DNA from: Acidobacteriota bacterium
GTDB lineage: Bacteria > Acidobacteriota > Blastocatellia > Pyrinomonadales > Pyrinomonadaceae
Length of the DNA: 26,974 bases
Direction: 5' to 3'
NCBI GenBank assembly: GCA_013140875.1
Contig: JABFSB010000248.1
Location: 1-26,974 of the forward strand
Shown here: piece after piece, positions 14,618 through 21,747 of the stretch
Layout of the letters: each line of letters opens with the position of its first letter
Position numbering within the stretch: position 1 is the stretch's first letter
Made by a program: the position numbers and the translations under genes
Notes under the pieces: model-generated
What the model was told of the DNA's origin: nothing
Database searches by the model: none
The model's input: the letters and a program-made list of their open reading frames with translations, nothing else

Positions 14618-15511
14618 CTAGTGGCCCGAGTACCAATCGTATCCGAATACCGGCTGCGACCAGAAATCACGCGGCCGCTCATTGGTAAATTCGATCGTGC
14701 CGACGCGCTTTATCTGCTTGATGCCGTACTTCGCCGTGCTTGCCAGACGCAGCGGGGCTCCGTGCTCGTGCCGCAGCGGCGCCTCGTTCATCTCATAGGC
14801 GAGCAGCGTTTGCGGGTGAAGGATGCTTTCGATATCCCAGCCGACAAAGTATTTCTCGTCCGGTGTCAGCAGCAAAACGTATTTCGGCAGATCGCGCGGC
14901 GTTATGGTAGGCGAATAAGCGGCGATAAAGTCCGAAAATCTTACGCCCGCCCAATGCACGATCGTGCTCCAGCCCTCGATGCACTTGAACTCGGTAATCA
15001 TTTCCGTCCGCGGCAGCCGCTTAACGTCGTCGATCGTCAAAGTCAGGTCGGCCGTGCTCCCCGGCAAGCCTTTAACCTGCAGGCGCCAATCGGCCGCCGT
15101 GATCTCTTCGGCAAGGCCTTCGGCACCGTTGAAACGCTCAGGCCGCGTTATGCGCTCCGGCGGAAATTCGGCGGCCAGCCGACGCGTGCTGTAAAAAAAC
15201 TTGCTCACGCTTTCGTTAAACGCGAAAGTCCGCCTAAATAATGCGGCCTTTGTCTCATCGCCCATCCATTTCCAGCTGAATATGCCGACCAGGGCCGCCA
15301 CGCCGCCGACCAGGAATCCGCGTCGCGATCGCGCGAACATATCCCGCTCGGCCTCGGCCGGCGAGACAGGCTCGCTTAAATAACGATGCTCTTTCAACAC
15401 GGATGCCGTATTGTTCGGGTCGTCCGGCCATGAATCGGCCGTTTTCCCCGTGCGTCGCTCGAATTCGCGGACCTTTTCGATCAAAACCTCTTTATCTTTA
15501 TCTTCGTTCAT
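14618..15511 (-). CDS. Molybdopterin-dependent oxidoreductase, sulfite-oxidase family (MsrP/YedY-like), with twin-arginine motif
   Basis: Mo-ligand Cys in FKCIEGWS, LLAYEMN, HGAPLRL, KYGIKQIK; SRRGFL plus hydrophobic helix. True start ATG 15511 overlaps the upstream TGA (ATGA); track start 15703 runs into the upstream gene. Confidence 0.88.
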   Translation of the reverse strand: MNEDKDKEVLIEKVREFERRTGKTADSWPDDPNNTASVLKEHRYLSEPVSPAEAERDMFARSRRGFLVGGVAALVGIFSWKWMGDETKAALFRRTFAFNESVSKFFYSTRRLAAEFPPERITRPERFNGAEGLAEEITAADWRLQVKGLPGSTADLTLTIDDVKRLPRTEMITEFKCIEGWSTIVHWAGVRFSDFIAAYSPTITPRDLPKYVLLLTPDEKYFVGWDIESILHPQTLLAYEMNEAPLRHEHGAPLRLASTAKYGIKQIKRVGTIEFTNERPRDFWSQPVFGYDWYSGH

Positions 15512-16224
15512 GCGGTCACCTCTTCGCCGGTTTGGGTCGCGGCGGTCGCCGTCGGTTCGGTCGGACCGGCGGCGTCGACAATGTCGTATCCCGTTATCAT
15601 CGAGCGAAAATTCGCCCAACCCGCCATCGCCACCTGAAACACATGGACGGCGAAAAAGAGCACGAACAACACCATCAGCCAAAAATGCTCCCAGCGTGCC
15701 CATTCATAGCCGCCCAGCAGGCTCGTCAACCACGACAATTGCGCCGGTTTGTAGATTGCGAGACCGGTAATTACAGAACCCGCACCCATTGCGATCACGC
15801 TTGTGTATGCGATGCGTTGTGCGTCGTTGTATTTGCCCTGGGGCGGTTTGCTCTTAACAATGTGGGCGTCGTGCAGCGCAACAAGCGGGGCCCGCTTTAA
15901 GGACGCCGGAATCGGTAAAAGCGCCCGCCATTCGCCCGAAACGAACGTGTAGATCAAATAAACTATCCCGTTCACCGCAAAAAACCACATGAAAAAGAAA
16001 TGAAGCTGCAGCCCCTCGGCAAGGCGAAACGGGATCGACAAATATTCGTAAAACCATTGCGGGAAAAACTTGAACAACTCATAGCCAAGGATGCGTACAC
16101 CGTAGACCGGATTGGCCCAATAGATCAGGATCCCGCTCCAGATCATCATCGTCAGCAGAGGAAAGTTGATCCAGTGCATCCAGCGCACCGCGAGCGGATG
16201 TTTTTTTTCAAGCTGTTTTTGCAT
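15508..16224 (-). CDS. Cytochrome b/b6 domain membrane protein (Ni-hydrogenase/thiosulfate-reductase cyt b-like), probable electron donor of the Mo enzyme
   Basis: HPLAVRWMHWIN, LQLHFFFMW, GKYNDAQRIAY, ARWEHFWLM...FAVHVF with four heme-ligand-type His; translationally coupled to the Mo oxidoreductase. Confidence 0.88.
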   Translation of the reverse strand: MQKQLEKKHPLAVRWMHWINFPLLTMMIWSGILIYWANPVYGVRILGYELFKFFPQWFYEYLSIPFRLAEGLQLHFFFMWFFAVNGIVYLIYTFVSGEWRALLPIPASLKRAPLVALHDAHIVKSKPPQGKYNDAQRIAYTSVIAMGAGSVITGLAIYKPAQLSWLTSLLGGYEWARWEHFWLMVLFVLFFAVHVFQVAMAGWANFRSMITGYDIVDAAGPTEPTATAATQTGEEVTA

Positions 16225-16355
16225 ATTTTCGGATTACCCGCTTCCTATTTTGCGGGTGCCTCCTAAAAGAAAACAATATAACACCGCGGGACCAGGGGTT
16301 ATTAACATATAAACCTTCGATGGTGTAATCTTATTCCAACCGCCCTCAAAAAACG

Positions 16356-16386
16356 TTTTCGCCCACCCGCCGGTAACGGAGTCATC
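16356..16386 (-). promoter_or_regulatory. ECF-sigma promoter (SigK-like) for cyt b/Mo oxidoreductase
   Basis: Minus strand GATGACTCC-N16-CGAAAAC; mirror image of the plus-strand site at 16393-16423. Confidence 0.65.
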
Positions 16387-16392
16387 GACATT

Positions 16393-16423
16393 GATGAATC
16401 CGATCTCGACCGGCAAACGAAAC
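16393..16423 (+). promoter_or_regulatory. ECF-sigma promoter (SigK-like) for fasciclin gene
   Basis: Plus strand GATGAATCC-N16-CGAAAC, about 67 nt upstream of ATG 16491. Confidence 0.65.
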
Positions 16424-16490
16424 CTTATTCTGTAACCCCTGCTGAGCTTTTTAAGGTTTAAGGGAAATCTAACAAGGAAGGAAATCAAAA

Positions 16491-17084
16491 ATGAAAAAAT
16501 TTACTTTATCTCTGGTTTTTGCAGTAGGAATGTTCGCGATGGGAAGCATGGCGGTCGTTGCCCAGGACAAGATGGATAAAATGGACAAGATGGAAAAGTC
16601 CGATAATCCGATGGTCGGCGGGGCCGCGATGTACAAAACAAAGGACATCGTCGACAACGCCGTCAATTCGGCTGACCACACGACGCTGGTTGCCGCCGTC
16701 AAGGCCGCGGGCCTTGTCGATACGTTGAAGAGCAAAGGCCCGTTCACCGTTTTTGCTCCGACAAATGCGGCGTTCGACAAGCTCCCGGCCGGTACGGTCG
16801 ATACGCTTGTAAAGCCTGAAAACAAGGCTACTTTAACCAAGATCCTCACTTATCACGTCGTTGCGGGAAATATGGACTCAAAAGCCATAGCAAAGGCGAT
16901 CAAGAAAGGTAACGGAACGGCGTCGCTCACAACGGTTGCGGGCGGAATGCTCAAGGCTTCGATGAGCGGTTCGGACCTGATCCTGACGGACGAAAAAGGC
17001 GGTACTTCGAAGGTCACCATTGCTGACGTTAAGCAATCAAACGGCGTCATACACGTGGTCGACACGGTCTTAATGCCAAACTAA
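16491..17084 (+). CDS. Secreted fasciclin (FAS1, MPT70-like) protein with Met-rich N-terminal segment
   Basis: Signal peptide, then QDKMDKMDKMEK; FAS1 motifs TLVAAVKAAGL, TVFAPTNAAF, ILTYHVV, NGVIHVVDTVLMP; strong SD AAGGAAGG. Confidence 0.95.
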   Translation: MKKFTLSLVFAVGMFAMGSMAVVAQDKMDKMDKMEKSDNPMVGGAAMYKTKDIVDNAVNSADHTTLVAAVKAAGLVDTLKSKGPFTVFAPTNAAFDKLPAGTVDTLVKPENKATLTKILTYHVVAGNMDSKAIAKAIKKGNGTASLTTVAGGMLKASMSGSDLILTDEKGGTSKVTIADVKQSNGVIHVVDTVLMPN

Positions 17085-17106
17085 CTCCCTCGTTTTTTCG
17101 AGTCTC

Positions 17107-17156
17107 GGCCCTTGGTAGATCTTGCCTTTTTAGGTGTTATCGAAGAGGGCCTTTTT
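17107..17156 (+). terminator. Possible weak intrinsic terminator after fasciclin
   Basis: GGCCCT (17107-17112)...AGGGCC (17146-17151) followed by TTTTT; the loop is long and imperfect. Confidence 0.3.
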
Positions 17157-17259
17157 GTGTCTTGAGGGAAATGGCCGGAATAATTTATAAAGGAATGGTG
17201 ATTATCAGTAAACGGCGGTGTGCTCTCCGACGGTTCTTTTTTACTTTGAGGTAAATCAT

Positions 17260-17838
17260 ATGAAATTCAAAACAGGCTTTATTTTCGCACTAATATTATC
17301 GATCACGGCGATCGGATTTGCTCTTGGCTGCGGCCAGTCTTCGGCTTCGAAAAAAGAGGCCGAGGTCACGGCTCCGGAAACCTCGGCGACGCCGTCTAAA
17401 ACAGCGGCGGCATCCTCGACGGCTTCTGACAATGTTTTCGACGGCCAAAAGCTGGTTCGGTCGAACATCGAATGGAAAAAGATTCTCACGCCCGCCCAGT
17501 ACAGCATAATGCGTGAGGAAGGCACAGACATTCCTTACGAAAGCCAATATCACGACAACCACGAAAATGGCGATTACTACTGCGCCGCCTGTCACTTAAA
17601 GCTCTTCAGCTCGGAAACAAAATTCGATTCCGGCACCGGCTGGCCGAGTTTTTATCAGGCGATCAATTCAAAGAATGTAGTCGAAAAAGTTGACAAGAGT
17701 TTGGGCGAAACGCGTACCGAGGTAGAATGTGCCCGCTGCGGAGCACACCTGGGGCACGTTTTCGACGACGGCCCGAAGCCGACCGGCCTGCGCTATTGCA
17801 TGAACGGCACGGCGTTGAAATTCGAAAAGGGGAAATAG
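17260..17838 (+). CDS. msrB: Peptide-methionine (R)-S-oxide reductase MsrB with lipoprotein-like signal peptide
   Basis: SD GAGG then ATG 17260; MKFKTGFIFALILSITAIGFALG-C lipobox-like; YYCAAC, KFDSGTGWPSF, EVECARCGAHLGHVFDDGP, LRYCMN. Confidence 0.95.
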   Translation: MKFKTGFIFALILSITAIGFALGCGQSSASKKEAEVTAPETSATPSKTAAASSTASDNVFDGQKLVRSNIEWKKILTPAQYSIMREEGTDIPYESQYHDNHENGDYYCAACHLKLFSSETKFDSGTGWPSFYQAINSKNVVEKVDKSLGETRTEVECARCGAHLGHVFDDGPKPTGLRYCMNGTALKFEKGK

Positions 17839-17952: not shown

Positions 17953-18249
17953 TTACCAATTCACTTTCCCCTCTTGTGAAGTATCGATCTGCGCAAGGTC
18001 GACGCCTTCGTTGTAGAAGAAGATCTTCATGTTGTCGAAAAGGAATTGGTGCGAATCGGGATTTGAAACATCAAGGCCGAAGTGGTTTATCAACTGCATC
18101 TGTTTCTTTTGCCACTCGGCCCAGCAGTCTTTGCACATCTCATCGCCGATCTTTTGTCCAAGCTCGGTCGGCACCGGTGCAAAGCCGATGGGCTCGTTTT
18201 TCTGCCCGCAGCGGGCGCATTTGAATTTGTCGTTTCCGAATAATGCCAT
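17953..18249 (-). CDS. yggX: Fe(II)-trafficking / oxidative damage protection protein (YggX family), four-Cys variant
   Basis: P.PTELGQKI....CKDCWAEWQKKQMQLINHFGL...FLFDNMKIFF matches the YggX pattern; CARC and CKDC pairs. Confidence 0.85.
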   Translation of the reverse strand: MALFGNDKFKCARCGQKNEPIGFAPVPTELGQKIGDEMCKDCWAEWQKKQMQLINHFGLDVSNPDSHQFLFDNMKIFFYNEGVDLAQIDTSQEGKVNW

Positions 18250-18293: not shown

Positions 18294-18743
18294 CTAGGCG
18301 GCCCGCTTGATCGCCGCAAGCACGTCTTCGTCAGCCTGTCGGAACAAACTCAGCGGCTGCACCTTGTGATACGCAATCTTGCCTTCTTTGTCTATCACGA
18401 CAACGCCGCGTGCCGAGCGTCCCGGCAGCCACGATTTCATTCCGTATAAGGCCGAGACCTTTCCGTCAGGATCGGACAACAATGTCAGCGGCAACTCGTT
18501 CTTCTCGGCAAACCCTTTATGCGATTCGACAGTGTCCGTCGAAATACCGACAACCCCGGCACCCGTTGCTTGATACTCAGACCAATGATCCCGCACCGAA
18601 CACATCTGCGCCGTGCAAACCGGCGTGTTGTCTCCGGGATAGAAAAGCAGCACGACTGTATGTCCTTTGTAATTACTTAGGGACCAATCGCCACCCCCGC
18701 CGTCTTTTAAAGTGAAATCGGGTGCTGTGTCGCCAGTGTTCAT
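18294..18743 (-). CDS. bcp: Peroxiredoxin, Bcp/PrxQ type (2-Cys, CxxxxC)
   Basis: APDFTL, LLFYPGDNTPVCTAQMC (PxxxTxxC peroxidatic motif plus resolving Cys five residues later), VVGISTD, LLSDPDG. Confidence 0.92.
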   Translation of the reverse strand: MNTGDTAPDFTLKDGGGGDWSLSNYKGHTVVLLFYPGDNTPVCTAQMCSVRDHWSEYQATGAGVVGISTDTVESHKGFAEKNELPLTLLSDPDGKVSALYGMKSWLPGRSARGVVVIDKEGKIAYHKVQPLSLFRQADEDVLAAIKRAA

Positions 18744-19123: not shown

Positions 19124-19203
19124 TAAGTCTCTAATTTCCTTGAATGGCACTCATTATCCGTAAAAAATCCGGTAAGTACCGTTATGCCGATTCATTGTGC
19201 ATC
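19124..19203 (-). pseudogene. Decayed copy C of the 3' end of the PflX-like radical SAM gene
   Basis: Minus strand reads GAA TCG GCA TAA CGG TAC TTA CCG GAT TTT..ACG GAT AAT GAG..CCA TTC AAG GAA ATT AGA GAC TTA = ESA*RYLPDF/TDNE/PFKEIRDL versus intact ESASLYYRPDFTDADKPFRDIRDF; small indels and a stop. Confidence 0.75.
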
Positions 19204-19223
19204 TACCAAAATGATTTCGGGCT

Positions 19224-20020
19224 TTACTGTTTCTCTTTCGGAGCCGCGATTTCTTTCAGGGCTGTTTTAGCATTTAGTCCTGATACCACCGTTTTTCCCG
19301 TTTTCTGTTCCAACTCCAACCTTGCCACGCGGGCCACATTACCGCCCTGCTGGGCTACGGTTTTATTTTCGTCAAAGGTTTTCGGATCGGTCGCCTGCGA
19401 AATATCCTTTGTCGAGGCTTCTGCAAGCATGTTCAGGATCAACTCCGTATTGGTCATATTGTCACGGAGGTTTTCTTTTTTCAGGTCCTTAAGCGTTTTA
19501 TATTCCTTCGTGTTTTTGCCCGACCACGTTTTAGTGATGATGTCTGTAAGCGTCGCAAACTGCATGCCTTCTTTCATTCCGCGCCGTTTCCATTCGTCTG
19601 TCAGCTCTTTGCGTATCTCGATGCTTTTCAGACGCTGATTGATCCAGTTTCGGAATAGCCGAGTTTTAGATATTGCTCCAAAGCCCTGTCGATGGTCAGT
19701 TCAGGGTCCTGCATTTCATCAAGACGCTCTTTGCCAAGTTGAGCGAGCCAGAGTTTGAAAAGCTCTGCTTTTGGCGATGGAATAGACTGGATAAGCCTGA
19801 ATATCTGTTCGGTGTTTGCAACGTCGGTAAGCCGCATCTTGCCGTCAGGTGCGGGCATTTTCAAAGCGTTACAATTTGTAACGGTTTCATTTCCTTCGTC
19901 TTTTAGTCTCTTTTTTAAAACACGCCAATAGACCTTGGGATTGGGACTCTCGGTAAGTACAGCAACAACATCTACAATTGCCAAGTACCACTTCTCTTGC
20001 TCATGATCCCAGAGAGATCT
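19224..20020 (-). pseudogene. BRO-N domain (antirepressor-like) gene, 5'-truncated and split by a 1-bp frameshift
   Basis: RSLWDHEQEKWYLAIVDVVAVLTES...KVYWRVLKKRL...PSPKAE continues into WINQRLKSIEIRKELTDEW...NLRDNMTNTELILNMLAE only if one A is added at GAAAC (19648-19650). An in-frame TAA lies just upstream of RSLW and no native start is left. Confidence 0.85.
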
Positions 20021-20105
20021 CGAATATCCTTAATTGGCTTATCTTTATCCACAAAATCCGGCCGTAGTATAGCGAAGCCGATTCGAGTTCCTGCATAAGT
20101 CCTTA
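20017..20105 (-). pseudogene. Decayed copy A of the 3' end of the PflX-like radical SAM gene
   Basis: Minus strand MQELESASLYY(R,-1bp)PDFVDKDKPIKDIRD versus intact MQEFESASLYYRPDFTDADKPFRDIRD: 22/27 aa identical, about 61/81 nt, with most differences at synonymous third positions. Confidence 0.92.
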
Positions 20106-20114
20106 TCTATATAG

Positions 20115-20405
20115 CTATGCAAATAGCTCATCCAAATCTCTCGCAGCGTAAAGAACGCGAACAATTGCGACTTTTCCGCCCCAAAGTCGGTAGAAGATCA
20201 AATAATTATCTTCGGGAAAACTGCGTAGCTCTTCTTTTAGTTCCGGGCGTTCGCGTCCTGCCTGGGTGTTATCGGCCAGCATTTCGAAAAGATCGGTTAG
20301 GCGGTTGTTAAAGACGAGGGCGGCGTCCAGATTATCTGTGGCAATGTAGATCAGAATTTCATCAATGTCCTTCTCGGCCTGAGCGGTAATAATATATTTA
20401 GCCAT
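20115..20405 (-). CDS. parE: Type II TA toxin, RelE/ParE family
   Basis: YIITAQAEKDIDEI..YIA.DN..AA..F...L......LA..P/T..GR.RPEL...LRSFP...YLIFY......V.IVRVL..ARD pattern; overlaps parD by 8 bp. Confidence 0.93.
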   Translation of the reverse strand: MAKYIITAQAEKDIDEILIYIATDNLDAALVFNNRLTDLFEMLADNTQAGRERPELKEELRSFPEDNYLIFYRLWGGKVAIVRVLYAARDLDELFA

Positions 20406-20664
20406 TTTGCCGTTTCATTCTGAGCAGCCGATCCTTGAATTCCGACATAACCTCGTTTCCATCCCGAATCCGTCCCCCCTCAAGATCATCAATGCCTTTT
20501 TGAATCTCAATACGAAGAGATTCGAGTTTCTTCTCACGCATCTCGTCACGCTGATGCAAGAGCCGGATGCCCTCGCGCACAACCTCACTAGCTGAGTTGT
20601 AAAGACCGCCTTTGACCTTTAGCTGGACAATATTCTCAAGTTCTGGTGTTAGGGAAACATTCAT
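20398..20664 (-). CDS. parD: Type II TA antitoxin, ParD/CopG-Arc-MetJ (RHH) family
   Basis: MNVSLTPELE..V..KV..G.YNSASEVVREGIRLL...L..LR.EIQKG; SD GGAG. Confidence 0.93.
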   Translation of the reverse strand: MNVSLTPELENIVQLKVKGGLYNSASEVVREGIRLLHQRDEMREKKLESLRIEIQKGIDDLEGGRIRDGNEVMSEFKDRLLRMKRQNG

Positions 20665-20727
20665 GATAAAACTCCATTCTAAGTTTTAATAATATATAAC
20701 ATACATTAGCATGAATAGCAATCTTTG

Positions 20728-21747
20728 TTATTGAAAATCACGAATATCACGAAATGGCTTGTCCGCATCGGTGAAATCCGGACGATAATACAGCGAGGCC
20801 GATTCGAATTCCTGCATAAAGCCTTCTTCCATTCCTAGGTCTTCCAAAAGTGACAGGGCCTGGAGCCATTCGGCTTCGGAGATGCGGCGGGACAATAGGA
20901 TATAGCGCTCGTCGGTGGAAGCTTTGTTGGTTGCGTAGTATTGGGCCATTAAAGAGATCGCTGTTTTGGGGGAAAGCTCGTCGCGTATCCAGCGAAGATT
21001 TTCTTCGATCCCGGCGATATCATTTGGCAGGACGAGCAGGCGAATGAGAAGGCCGCGTTTGAGCAGACCGTCTTCACTGAAAACCAGTTCGTCGCCCATC
21101 TGTCGGTGCATTTCTTTTATCGCGGCCCGGGCGTGTTCCTTATAATCGCGAACTTTCGAATACTGAAATCCGGCATCTGAGTCAGCATATTTCAGATCTG
21201 GAAGATAAATATCGACGATGCCATCGAGCAATTTCAAAACCTCGACCGAATCATACGCGTTGGTGTTGTAAACGATCGGCAGCCGCAAACCTTTTTCAGC
21301 CGCGACCAAAATCGCCCTCGCCATCTGCGGTGCGAAATGCGTCGGCGAGACAAAGCCGATGTTATGACAGCCTTTCGATTGCAGTTCCAACATCATCTCG
21401 GCCAGCCGCTGATGCGTAACTTCGTTTTTTTTCTGAGTTTTCCACGTCTGTGAGATTTGATAATTCTGGCAATAAACGCAGCGAAGGTTGCAGTTGCCGA
21501 AAAAAATATTCCCGGCACCGTGCGTGCCCGACAGGCACGGCTCTTCGCCAAAATGCGCCGTGTAAGAAGATACGATCGGCAGGCGGCCGGAATAACACGC
21601 GGCAATCTCGTCGTTCAGCCGATCGTTGCCGCAGTCTTTCGGGCAGACCGTGCAGGAGCGGAGCATTTCCTCAAGCGCGGTTACGCGCTCCTCAAGCTTA
21701 TTCTCCGCCAAGAGTGTTAGATACTTTGGGTTTTGATTTGAACTCAC
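20728..21747 (-). CDS. pflX: PflX-like radical SAM protein (PFL-activating-enzyme-related)
   Basis: CTVCPKDCG, HFGEEPCLSG, GNIFFGNCNLRCVYCQNYQISQ (CxxxCxxC), NIGFVSPTHF, VYNTNAYDS, DIYLPDLKY, LLIRLLVLP; GTG start with SD GGAG. Confidence 0.9.
   Translation of the reverse strand: MSSNQNPKYLTLLAENKLEERVTALEEMLRSCTVCPKDCGNDRLNDEIAACYSGRLPIVSSYTAHFGEEPCLSGTHGAGNIFFGNCNLRCVYCQNYQISQTWKTQKKNEVTHQRLAEMMLELQSKGCHNIGFVSPTHFAPQMARAILVAAEKGLRLPIVYNTNAYDSVEVLKLLDGIVDIYLPDLKYADSDAGFQYSKVRDYKEHARAAIKEMHRQMGDELVFSEDGLLKRGLLIRLLVLPNDIAGIEENLRWIRDELSPKTAISLMAQYYATNKASTDERYILLSRRISEAEWLQALSLLEDLGMEEGFMQEFESASLYYRPDFTDADKPFRDIRDFQ

Follow-up and report, generated by a model that had tools for sequence, protein, structure and literature searches.

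A cytochrome b–molybdoenzyme pair beside a fasciclin–msrB pair in an uncultured acidobacterium: a candidate region for handling methionine oxidized outside the cytoplasm

The locus and its two gene pairs

We analysed a 26,974-nucleotide stretch of DNA (the window) from a Pyrinomonadaceae-like Acidobacterium, with attention to four genes at 14618-17838 that encode a molybdenum (Mo) enzyme, a cytochrome b (cyt b), a fasciclin and a methionine sulfoxide reductase, MsrB. The source genome (G000) is a metagenome-assembled genome of an uncultured organism, 76% complete and in 579 contigs. An earlier note, made from the sequence alone, had read these genes as a module that scavenges or repairs methionine sulfoxide (Met-O) outside the cytoplasm; all four proved to be real genes at the positions that it gave. 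They form two pairs that lie side by side and are transcribed divergently. On the minus strand, the cytochrome b gene (15508-16224) is followed by the Mo gene, which is abutted by an arginyltransferase (ATE) gene. On the plus strand, the FAS1 fasciclin gene (16491-17084) is followed by a lipoprotein msrB (17260-17838). Promoter-like elements of the extracytoplasmic function (ECF) type lie between the pairs. The features are listed below.

14618-15511, minus strand: Mo subunit, 297 aa, YedY-like with a SUOX fold (PF00174, 92.6 bits)
15508-16224, minus strand: di-haem cytochrome b of the cyt b561/HyaC type (PF01292, 71.4 bits)
16358-16383, minus strand: ECF-type promoter-like element GACTCC-N16-CGAA, directed towards cyt b-Mo (motif comparison across loci)
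16396-16421, plus strand: ECF-type promoter-like element GAATCC-N16-CGAA, directed towards fasciclin-msrB (motif comparison across loci)
16491-17084, plus strand: secreted single-FAS1 fasciclin, 197 aa (PF02469, 119.5 bits)
17260-17838, plus strand: lipoprotein MsrB (TIGR00357, 174.9 bits)
17953-18249, minus strand: YggX-like Fe(2+)-trafficking/oxidative-damage protection protein (PF04362, 63.9 bits)
18294-18743, minus strand: Bcp/PrxQ-type peroxiredoxin (PF00578, 137.7 bits)

Judged from sequence and gene context, the region seems, on balance, to consist of two gene pairs that handle methionine oxidized outside the cytoplasm. The cytochrome b–Mo pair is likely to reduce Met-O, and it probably stands in for the usual MsrPQ (YedYZ) as an envelope Met-O repair system.

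The cytochrome b–Mo pair

The Mo open reading frame is open up to 15703, and the ATG at 15511 overlaps the stop codon of the cytochrome b gene (ATGA), coupling the two genes translationally. This ATG is most likely the start of the Mo gene. Homologues are 288-307 aa long, and their N-terminus is conserved from about residue 3. The public gene call of the Mo protein (P0001, 240 aa) begins at Met58, which affects window positions 15340-15511 on the minus strand; it is probably too short, because the 57 upstream residues are conserved at the protein level in homologues. A twin-arginine (RR) motif, SRRGFLVGG, occupies residues 62-70, after a conserved stretch of about 60 aa and before a hydrophobic helix; R63, R64, F66, G69 and G70 each recur in 90% or more of 33 homologues. 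No AxA cleavage site was found in the sequence after the helix, and the RR helix looks like an anchor inserted by twin-arginine translocation (Tat) rather than a cleaved signal. The protein is thus made up of a conserved cytoplasmic N-terminal stretch, the RR motif with one transmembrane helix, and a minimal YedY-like Mo domain that has no dimerization domain.

The cysteine ligand of Mo lies in KCIEGWS, in which C177, E179, W181 and S182 are invariant in the 33 homologues. This motif aligns with RCVEAWS (Cys102) of E. coli MsrP, the common pattern being C-[VI]-E-x-W-S. The closest solved structure to the Mo domain was that of E. coli YedY/MsrP, 1XDQ (phmmer, 4e-15), and 1XDQ and 1XDY were also the top fold matches (Foldseek, 3e-11) of an AlphaFold2 (AF2) model with a pLDDT of 79.6. 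A profile search revealed no other PF00174 gene in the source genome.

The cytochrome b matched PF01292 at 71.4 bits, against a gathering threshold of 30.1, and did not match PF01794, the family of MsrQ. The earlier note's view that the partner is not of the MsrQ/ferric-reductase type was therefore borne out. Of 53 homologues, 50 keep His17, His75, His180 and His194, and these four residues correspond to the haem ligands of the PF01292 type in helices 1, 2 and 4. A sequence search against structures returned no solved homologue, and a profile search of the 76% complete source genome returned no PF01794 gene.

A cluster of fused PF01292 and PF00174 proteins, 492 aa long, is present in the ESM Atlas. 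These proteins are commonest in Actinomycetota; their TM-score to the Atlas's own Mo-protein model was 0.81. In the window, a cytochrome b with four conserved His is followed, in the coupled Mo gene, by the RR motif, a transmembrane helix and the Mo-cofactor (MoCo) domain. The cyt b-Mo pair looks like a split form of the fused haem-MoCo proteins, with the RR helix of the Mo protein as the Tat-inserted anchor. One protein of this kind has been described: Sco3746 combines haem b and MoCo and has five helices, the last of which depends on Tat for its insertion (Tooke et al., 2017; PMC5449189); that report covers only its biogenesis by dual Sec/Tat insertion. In both Sco3746 and the window pair, four helices form the haem b module, and a twin-arginine motif, an extra transmembrane helix and a MoCo domain come after it, a likeness drawn from the described architecture of Sco3746 and not from its sequence; they differ in that the modules in the window are separate, translationally coupled genes. 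The cyt b-Mo family is widespread and annotated only as 'molybdopterin-dependent oxidoreductase' and 'cytochrome b'. Our literature search found no paper that assigns a function to this PF01292-coupled MsrP-like family.

The pair resembles MsrPQ in several respects: a SUOX-fold Mo domain with the C-[VI]-E-x-W-S motif, a twin-arginine motif, a coupled membrane haem b protein, MsrP of E. coli as the closest solved structure, and a complementary distribution in the genus. It differs from MsrPQ in others. The haem partner is a four-helix di-haem PF01292 protein, whereas MsrQ is of the ferric-reductase type PF01794; the Mo protein keeps an N-terminal anchor after about 60 aa; and the cytochrome b gene comes first. 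To our knowledge, MsrPQ with the Met-rich peptide MrpX is the only described system for envelope Met-O repair and scavenging that is driven by the respiratory chain, and it has been studied only in Proteobacteria.

The distribution of the two systems was examined in 41 genomes of the genus, where canonical MsrP scored 420-457 bits. Window-type Mo was present in 24 genomes, canonical MsrP in 13, both in none and neither in 4. In all five canonical msrP loci that were fetched, msrQ adjoined msrP. Canonical MsrP was also absent from five cultured Bacteroidota that hold the cyt b-Mo pair.

In the mechanism that we propose, the di-haem cytochrome b would take electrons from the quinol pool and deliver them to the YedY-like Mo centre facing the periplasm, and the Mo centre would reduce Met-O in proteins and peptides. 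The pair would be analogous, but not orthologous, to MsrPQ, and would be related to the haem-MoCo proteins of Actinomycetota, in which the two modules are fused and not split.

Met-rich peptides and exported thiol proteins across phyla

We collected 80 Mo loci from species-representative genomes of Acidobacteriota, Bacteroidota, Planctomycetota, Armatimonadota and Actinomycetota, and counted the features within 5 kb of the Mo gene. A cytochrome b gene adjoined the Mo gene in 78 of the 80 loci. Exported MsrB was a recurrent neighbour (12/80), in support of its proposed partnership with the Mo/cyt b pair; six Chitinophagales and one group-5 acidobacterium among these loci had a co-directional msrB-cytb-Mo arrangement. 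When MsrB, TlpA and DUF1223 were taken together, the count rose to 29/80. ECF sigma genes were found at 15/80 loci.

Secreted Met-rich peptides with DKM/KM repeats were detected by a rule-based scan at 12 of 100 Mo-centred loci from five phyla (1.40 Mb), or at 13 if one locus just under the threshold is included, and they came from three phyla. They lie in the same operon as cyt b-Mo or divergent from it. The scan picked up no stand-alone DKM/KM peptide in the control loci (0.72 Mb) or the source genome (3.49 Mb), 4.2 Mb in total. These counts indicated that DKM-type peptides recur beside the Mo/cyt b pair. Three layouts were seen. The order was cytb-Mo-peptide in Blastocatellia, Terriglobia and Bryobacterales, and peptide-cytb-Mo, in some cases followed by TlpA, in Gemmataceae and Tepidisphaeraceae. 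In Mucilaginibacter and Pedobacter (L075, L103, L104, L107), genes for an ECF sigma, an anti-sigma and the peptide, in this order, are divergent from a DUF1223-cytb-Mo series.

The stand-alone peptides contain 12-23% Met and 31-54% charged residues. This composition matches that of Azospira suillum MrpX (20% Met, 44% charged), which is recycled by YedY under SigF/NrsF control and was shown to be oxidized and re-reduced (PMC4436054). The bcrXQP genes of Brucella melitensis are the equivalent of the mrpX-yedYZ system (PMC8315932). The three-part layout of SigF/NrsF-YedY1Z1-MrpX in Azospira and BcrS/AbcS-BcrXQP in Brucella, namely an ECF sigma with its anti-sigma, a Mo enzyme with a haem partner and a secreted peptide rich in Met and charge, is mirrored around cyt b-Mo in Mucilaginibacter and Pedobacter, and forms with the peptide in the operon occur in Acidobacteriota and Planctomycetota. 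There are also differences: the reductase pair is PF01292-coupled, the sigmas of the window's relatives are SigH/SigR-like with ZAS anti-sigmas and not ECF16/NrsF, and the window has no free peptide, its only local DKM element being a 14-residue tail of the fasciclin. A large unannotated cyt b-Mo family has MrpX-like partners in three phyla, of which we found no description in the searchable literature.

A tail of the same type is carried by a thioredoxin (Trx)-like protein beside sigma-cytb-Mo in four relatives (L003, L031, L035, L046). The source genome encodes an exported Trx-like homologue (C561:5266-5748, minus strand; L170) with an N-terminal Met-rich repeat tail of the MKKDD type. Besides the fasciclin, it was the only such secreted tailed protein found in the 3.5-Mb genome.

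A secreted DUF1223 protein, which has a thioredoxin-like fold and a CxxC-type motif (...EGCSSCPPA), was directly beside cyt b-Mo in 10 of the 80 loci (L075, L103, L104, L107, L094, L095, L078, L089, L055, L072), mostly from Sphingobacteriales and Cytophagales. It is possible that this protein is a dedicated thiol partner of the pair.

The MsrB of the window scored 174.9 bits on TIGR00357, against a cut-off of 113, with its catalytic Cys in RYCMN and its zinc pairs in CAAC and CARC. A lipobox-like ALGC follows the signal peptide, and the Cys there is kept in all orthologues in the genus. The protein has a Thr at what we take to be the usual position of the resolving Cys. In relatives, msrB is either alone or fused to a TlpA-like thioredoxin domain (fusions in L001, L006 and L018). 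Exported MsrA/B with a fused thioredoxin domain is known as the PilB type of Neisseria. The TlpA-MsrB fusions at the same locus in relatives and the export of the window MsrB recall this type, whereas the window MsrB lacks a fused Trx domain, has no MsrA, and has no reductant encoded locally. In our model, the lipoprotein MsrB would handle the R-sulfoxide, and its reductant would presumably be a TlpA-like thioredoxin encoded elsewhere.

From these distributions we tentatively propose that a PF01292 cytochrome b with a minimal YedY-like Mo subunit constitutes a second widespread quinol-driven envelope Met-O reductase, with its own MrpX-like peptides, ECF control and tethered tails. This second system may be split here and fused in Actinomycetota. 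The pair occurs in five phyla, and these often lack canonical MsrPQ. The peptide may, in some lineages, have been shortened and tethered to the N-terminus of an exported Trx-like protein or fasciclin as a built-in, recyclable Met shield. The data offer a testable function for a large family that had appeared in the literature only as a curiosity of Sec/Tat biogenesis, and the idea can be tested directly because cultures exist for several holders (Mucilaginibacter, Pedobacter, Hymenobacter, Fibrella, Ginsengibacter). If true, it would explain how soil and water Bacteroidota, Acidobacteriota and Planctomycetota, including drinking-water organisms, handle stress of the hypochlorite/chloramine type, and it would suggest a functional redox role for the short Met/Lys/Asp tails of exported proteins.

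The fasciclin tail, promoter elements and competing readings

The fasciclin consists of a Sec signal peptide (residues 1-24) and a FAS1 domain (PF02469, 119.5 bits against a gathering threshold of 22). The mature N-terminal end reads Q-DKMDKMDKMEKSDN-PMVGGAAM, and its Met/Lys/Asp tail is encoded at 16563-16607. The tail has 14 residues, 3 of them Met and 10 charged, including (DKM)3; at the DNA level it corresponds to 3.8 tandem copies of a 9-bp unit (16565-16598). The repeat number was constant across contigs spanning the tail in two metagenome runs. In 116 close fasciclin homologues the tail has a median length of 10 residues and a make-up of 23% Met, 24% Lys and 18% Asp; the number of Met per tail ranges from 0 to 5. 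A strain-specific chance slip of the DKM repeat was ruled out, as 115 of the 116 homologues have a Met/Lys/Asp tail. Because it is shared across these homologues, the tail is a conserved family trait and not a local accident.

An alignment showed that the tail opens like the first residues of the stand-alone DKM peptides (AQDKM...DKME). The protein as a whole is not of the MrpX/MXKDX kind: it is a 197-aa FAS1 protein in which only the tail is rich in Met and charge, and it matched no NCBIfam family. The earlier note had proposed a sacrificial Met peptide fused to a fasciclin. The composition and the opening residues agree with this proposal, but the tail is short, subfamily-wide and Met-free in some fasciclin-msrB pairs. 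The Q-DKMDKMDKMEK tail may be a miniature of the MrpX-like DKM/KM-repeat peptides, and would then most likely act as an exposed patch of Met that can be oxidized and reduced again, as a client or as a local shield, and probably not as a bulk hypochlorite sink. That the tail is a physiological substrate is a possibility that we would not press. We found no paper on a fasciclin with MsrP or with MXKDX.

The constant neighbour of the fasciclin gene within the genus is msrB; the two genes stay together across at least 13 species and move together. An element of the form [GA]N[TG]TCC-N16/17-CGAA faces each of the two gene pairs in all six fasciclin-bearing loci, with a chance expectation of about 0.03 per strand. 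In addition, GAATCC-N16-CGAA is conserved 5' of the fasciclin gene in 12 of 16 further loci of the genus. Because both pairs carry the same ECF-type promoter-like element, they may be induced together by envelope oxidative or chlorine stress; from the motifs, we judge co-regulation to be evenly balanced between yes and no.

The window contains no sigma gene, and candidates lie on contigs C195 and C551 of the source genome. In relatives, the cluster sigma is a SigH/SigR-like ECF factor with a membrane-bound anti-sigma that has a cytoplasmic HxxxCxxC zinc motif (ZAS type), and its homologue in the source genome is on the separate contig C195. An orphan ECF sigma gene without an adjoining anti-sigma is present on C551 (250-798, plus strand; L026). 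Upstream of the C551 gene, 21 of 22 bases (GATCTCGACCGRCAAACGA...) are identical to those in the spacer of the fasciclin promoter-like element (window 16396-16421), and the C551 sigma is a candidate regulator of both fas-msrB and cyt b-Mo. The sequence GGAATAA-N16-CATCTT precedes the Trx-like gene on C561, and the same form is found before the SigH-like ECF sigma gene on C195. The cluster anti-sigma (L001:4345-5268, L003:4411-5295, C195:1202-1981) has an extracytoplasmic domain of about 170 aa that lies outside Pfam, with conserved H-K-x-C and H-x-C motifs; this domain is possibly a periplasmic oxidant sensor.

The mycobacterial SigK regulon comprises the fasciclins MPT70/MPT83 together with the thiol-disulfide proteins DipZ/MPT53. 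It resembles the present locus in combining secreted or lipoprotein fasciclins with extracytoplasmic redox proteins under a ...TCC-N16-CGAA-like promoter, and both fasciclin genes of the source genome carry the element. It differs in that no SigK/RskA pair was identified, and in that the cluster sigma of the relatives is SigH/SigR-like with another promoter form. A SigK-like assignment of that sigma was not supported, since its best family is the SigH/SigR type with a ZAS anti-sigma and its own promoter is GGAATAA-N16-CAT. The second fasciclin of the source genome (C330:295-960, plus strand) is a lipoprotein with an Asn/Met/Ser-rich linker, and GAATCC-N16-CGAA lies upstream of its gene. The genome thereby has a secreted and a lipoprotein fasciclin, like the MPT70/MPT83 pair.

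A number of observations weigh against a common role of the two gene pairs in handling oxidized methionine. The locus did not appear in any RNA run in a search of sequencing runs. Genome-wide, the strict promoter motif was only about 2-fold enriched (26 hits, against 11-16 in shuffled sequences). The tail is short, with 3 Met in the window fasciclin and between 0 and 5 in its relatives; it lacks Met altogether in some fas-msrB pairs; and neither of two fasciclins with Met tails, on the megabase contigs of L021 and L022, has an Msr, Mo or cytochrome gene nearby. Of the 80 diverse Mo loci, 1 had a fasciclin within 5 kb, and none of 40 fasciclin loci from other Acidobacteriota genera had MsrB, TlpA, DUF1223, cyt b or Mo within 5 kb. 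Among the matches listed (about 160 fasciclin, 150 Mo, 401 Acidobacteriota genomes), the fasciclin–Mo linkage occurred only in G000 and G042, which is a lower bound; the unpublished genome G223 is among the 401, and no particular claim depends on it. These surveys did not support the recurrent fasciclin/Mo-oxidoreductase linkage that the earlier note had supposed, and a general linkage of this kind was rejected. Distribution and context lent support to the other parts of its Met-O module, that is, the non-canonical MsrP-like/cyt b pair, the Met-rich peptides and the exported MsrB.

These facts can also be explained by mere juxtaposition: cyt b-Mo and fas-msrB would be independent neighbours, the fasciclin an envelope or adhesion protein with its tail as a flexible linker, and MsrB alone, perhaps also the Mo enzyme, would act on Met-O. 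In keeping with this explanation, cyt b-Mo lacks a fasciclin in 79 of 80 loci, and in nine further genomes of the genus the fas-msrB pair is away from cyt b-Mo, in most cases with GAATCC-N16-CGAA upstream. As the fas-msrB pair is retained where the tail has no Met and where cyt b-Mo is absent, we doubt that the fasciclin scavenges in bulk and regard such a role as improbable. Yet independent neighbours would not be expected to share a promoter-like element in 6/6 loci, nor would a linker be expected to match in composition the peptides enriched beside cyt b-Mo. The persistence of fas-msrB as a mobile unit also speaks against chance adjacency, as does a second, independent fasciclin-Mo-cytb operon (L020); the L020 fasciclin has no Met tail, which counts on the other side. 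Taken together, we consider independent neighbours the strongest alternative and still unlikely.

A further set of doubts concerns the substrate of the cyt b-Mo pair. The Mo protein is not an MsrP equivalog: on the profile NF003767, on which canonical MsrP from sister genomes gave the high scores mentioned above, it scored 79.4 bits against a cut-off of 207 and matched only positions 92-257 of 320. In the alignment, two parts of E. coli MsrP have no counterpart in it, namely the YNNFYEF segment (Asn45/Tyr47) and a C-terminal extension of about 55 aa, and its substrate pocket therefore differs from that of MsrP. According to a 2004 structure paper, Asn45 and Tyr47 are reportedly at the active site. 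Of the YNNFYEF region the Mo protein keeps only Asn128, in an R-x-N-G context and without the FY insertion; this Asn is invariant in homologues, and two residues before it stands a near-invariant Arg126. The Arg126-x-Asn128 pattern faintly recalls the RNH motif seen in sulfite oxidases. In addition, one Gemmataceae genome holds both the cyt b-Mo and the MsrPQ system, and their mutual exclusion in the genus may rest on few evolutionary events, because the genomes with canonical MsrP tend to be more distant. An M50/CBS protein was tried as a yardstick of relatedness for counting switches between the systems and was set aside, as it is present in only 17 of the 41 genomes.

The pair might therefore have another substrate, such as periplasmic sulfite or another sulfur oxyanion oxidized towards quinone, small S- or N-oxides, or sulfenylated Cys of MsrB or Trx-like partners. 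Besides the missing Tyr47 segment and extension and the conserved Arg and Asn, this alternative is favoured by the fold search, in which sulfite oxidases/dehydrogenases nearly equalled YedY, and by the thiol-redox neighbours TlpA and DUF1223, which are as frequent as MsrB. However, the Cys motif is of the YedY type (CIEGWS) and not the CAGNRR type of sulfite oxidases, the dimerization domain is absent, and the surveyed neighbourhoods contained no sulfur-oxidation genes. The complementary distribution with MsrPQ and the specific enrichment of Met-rich peptides beside the pair also argue for Met-O, and we rate a different substrate as distinctly improbable. Very improbable, finally, is a module for periplasmic copper handling by Cu(I)-binding Mets motifs (MxxM) in place of Met-O cycling: MDKMDKM has the MxxM spacing, and Met-rich domains reportedly recruit Cu(I) in CueO-type systems (PMC11494321), but no CopA/B, Cus or multicopper oxidase genes were seen in the window or the surveyed neighbourhoods, the module is constantly accompanied by MsrB, Trx-like proteins and ECF sigmas of the redox type, and the composition equals that of MrpX, a peptide with demonstrated oxidation and re-reduction (PMC4436054).

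The genes yggX and bcp/prxQ adjoin the cluster, and this synteny is kept in relatives L001-L013, where the order is bcp, yggX and msrB on one side and cyt b, Mo and ATE on the other. In some relatives, genes for an ECF sigma and a membrane ZAS-type anti-sigma lie 5' of cyt b. A fasciclin gene between msrB and cyt b is restricted to a sub-lineage of the genus (the window, G042, G178, G118, L023 and L038). DNA nearly identical to that of the window was found mainly in drinking-water and biofilter metagenomes (runs X1, X2, X4, X5, X7, X8 and X20); exposure to chlorine in the drinking-water habitat would plausibly fit the handling of oxidized methionine, as circumstantial evidence.

Two minor observations concern the surroundings. 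In relatives L005 (2025-2451, 3729-4380) and L007 (11626-12061), bcp is split over two frames, and cyt b likewise in L005; these are frameshifts that arose either from assembly error or from gene decay. In the window, the stretch between bcp and a radical-SAM gene (19124-20826) contains BRO-N fragments as well as a ParDE toxin-antitoxin pair, which are absent or different at this place in relatives.

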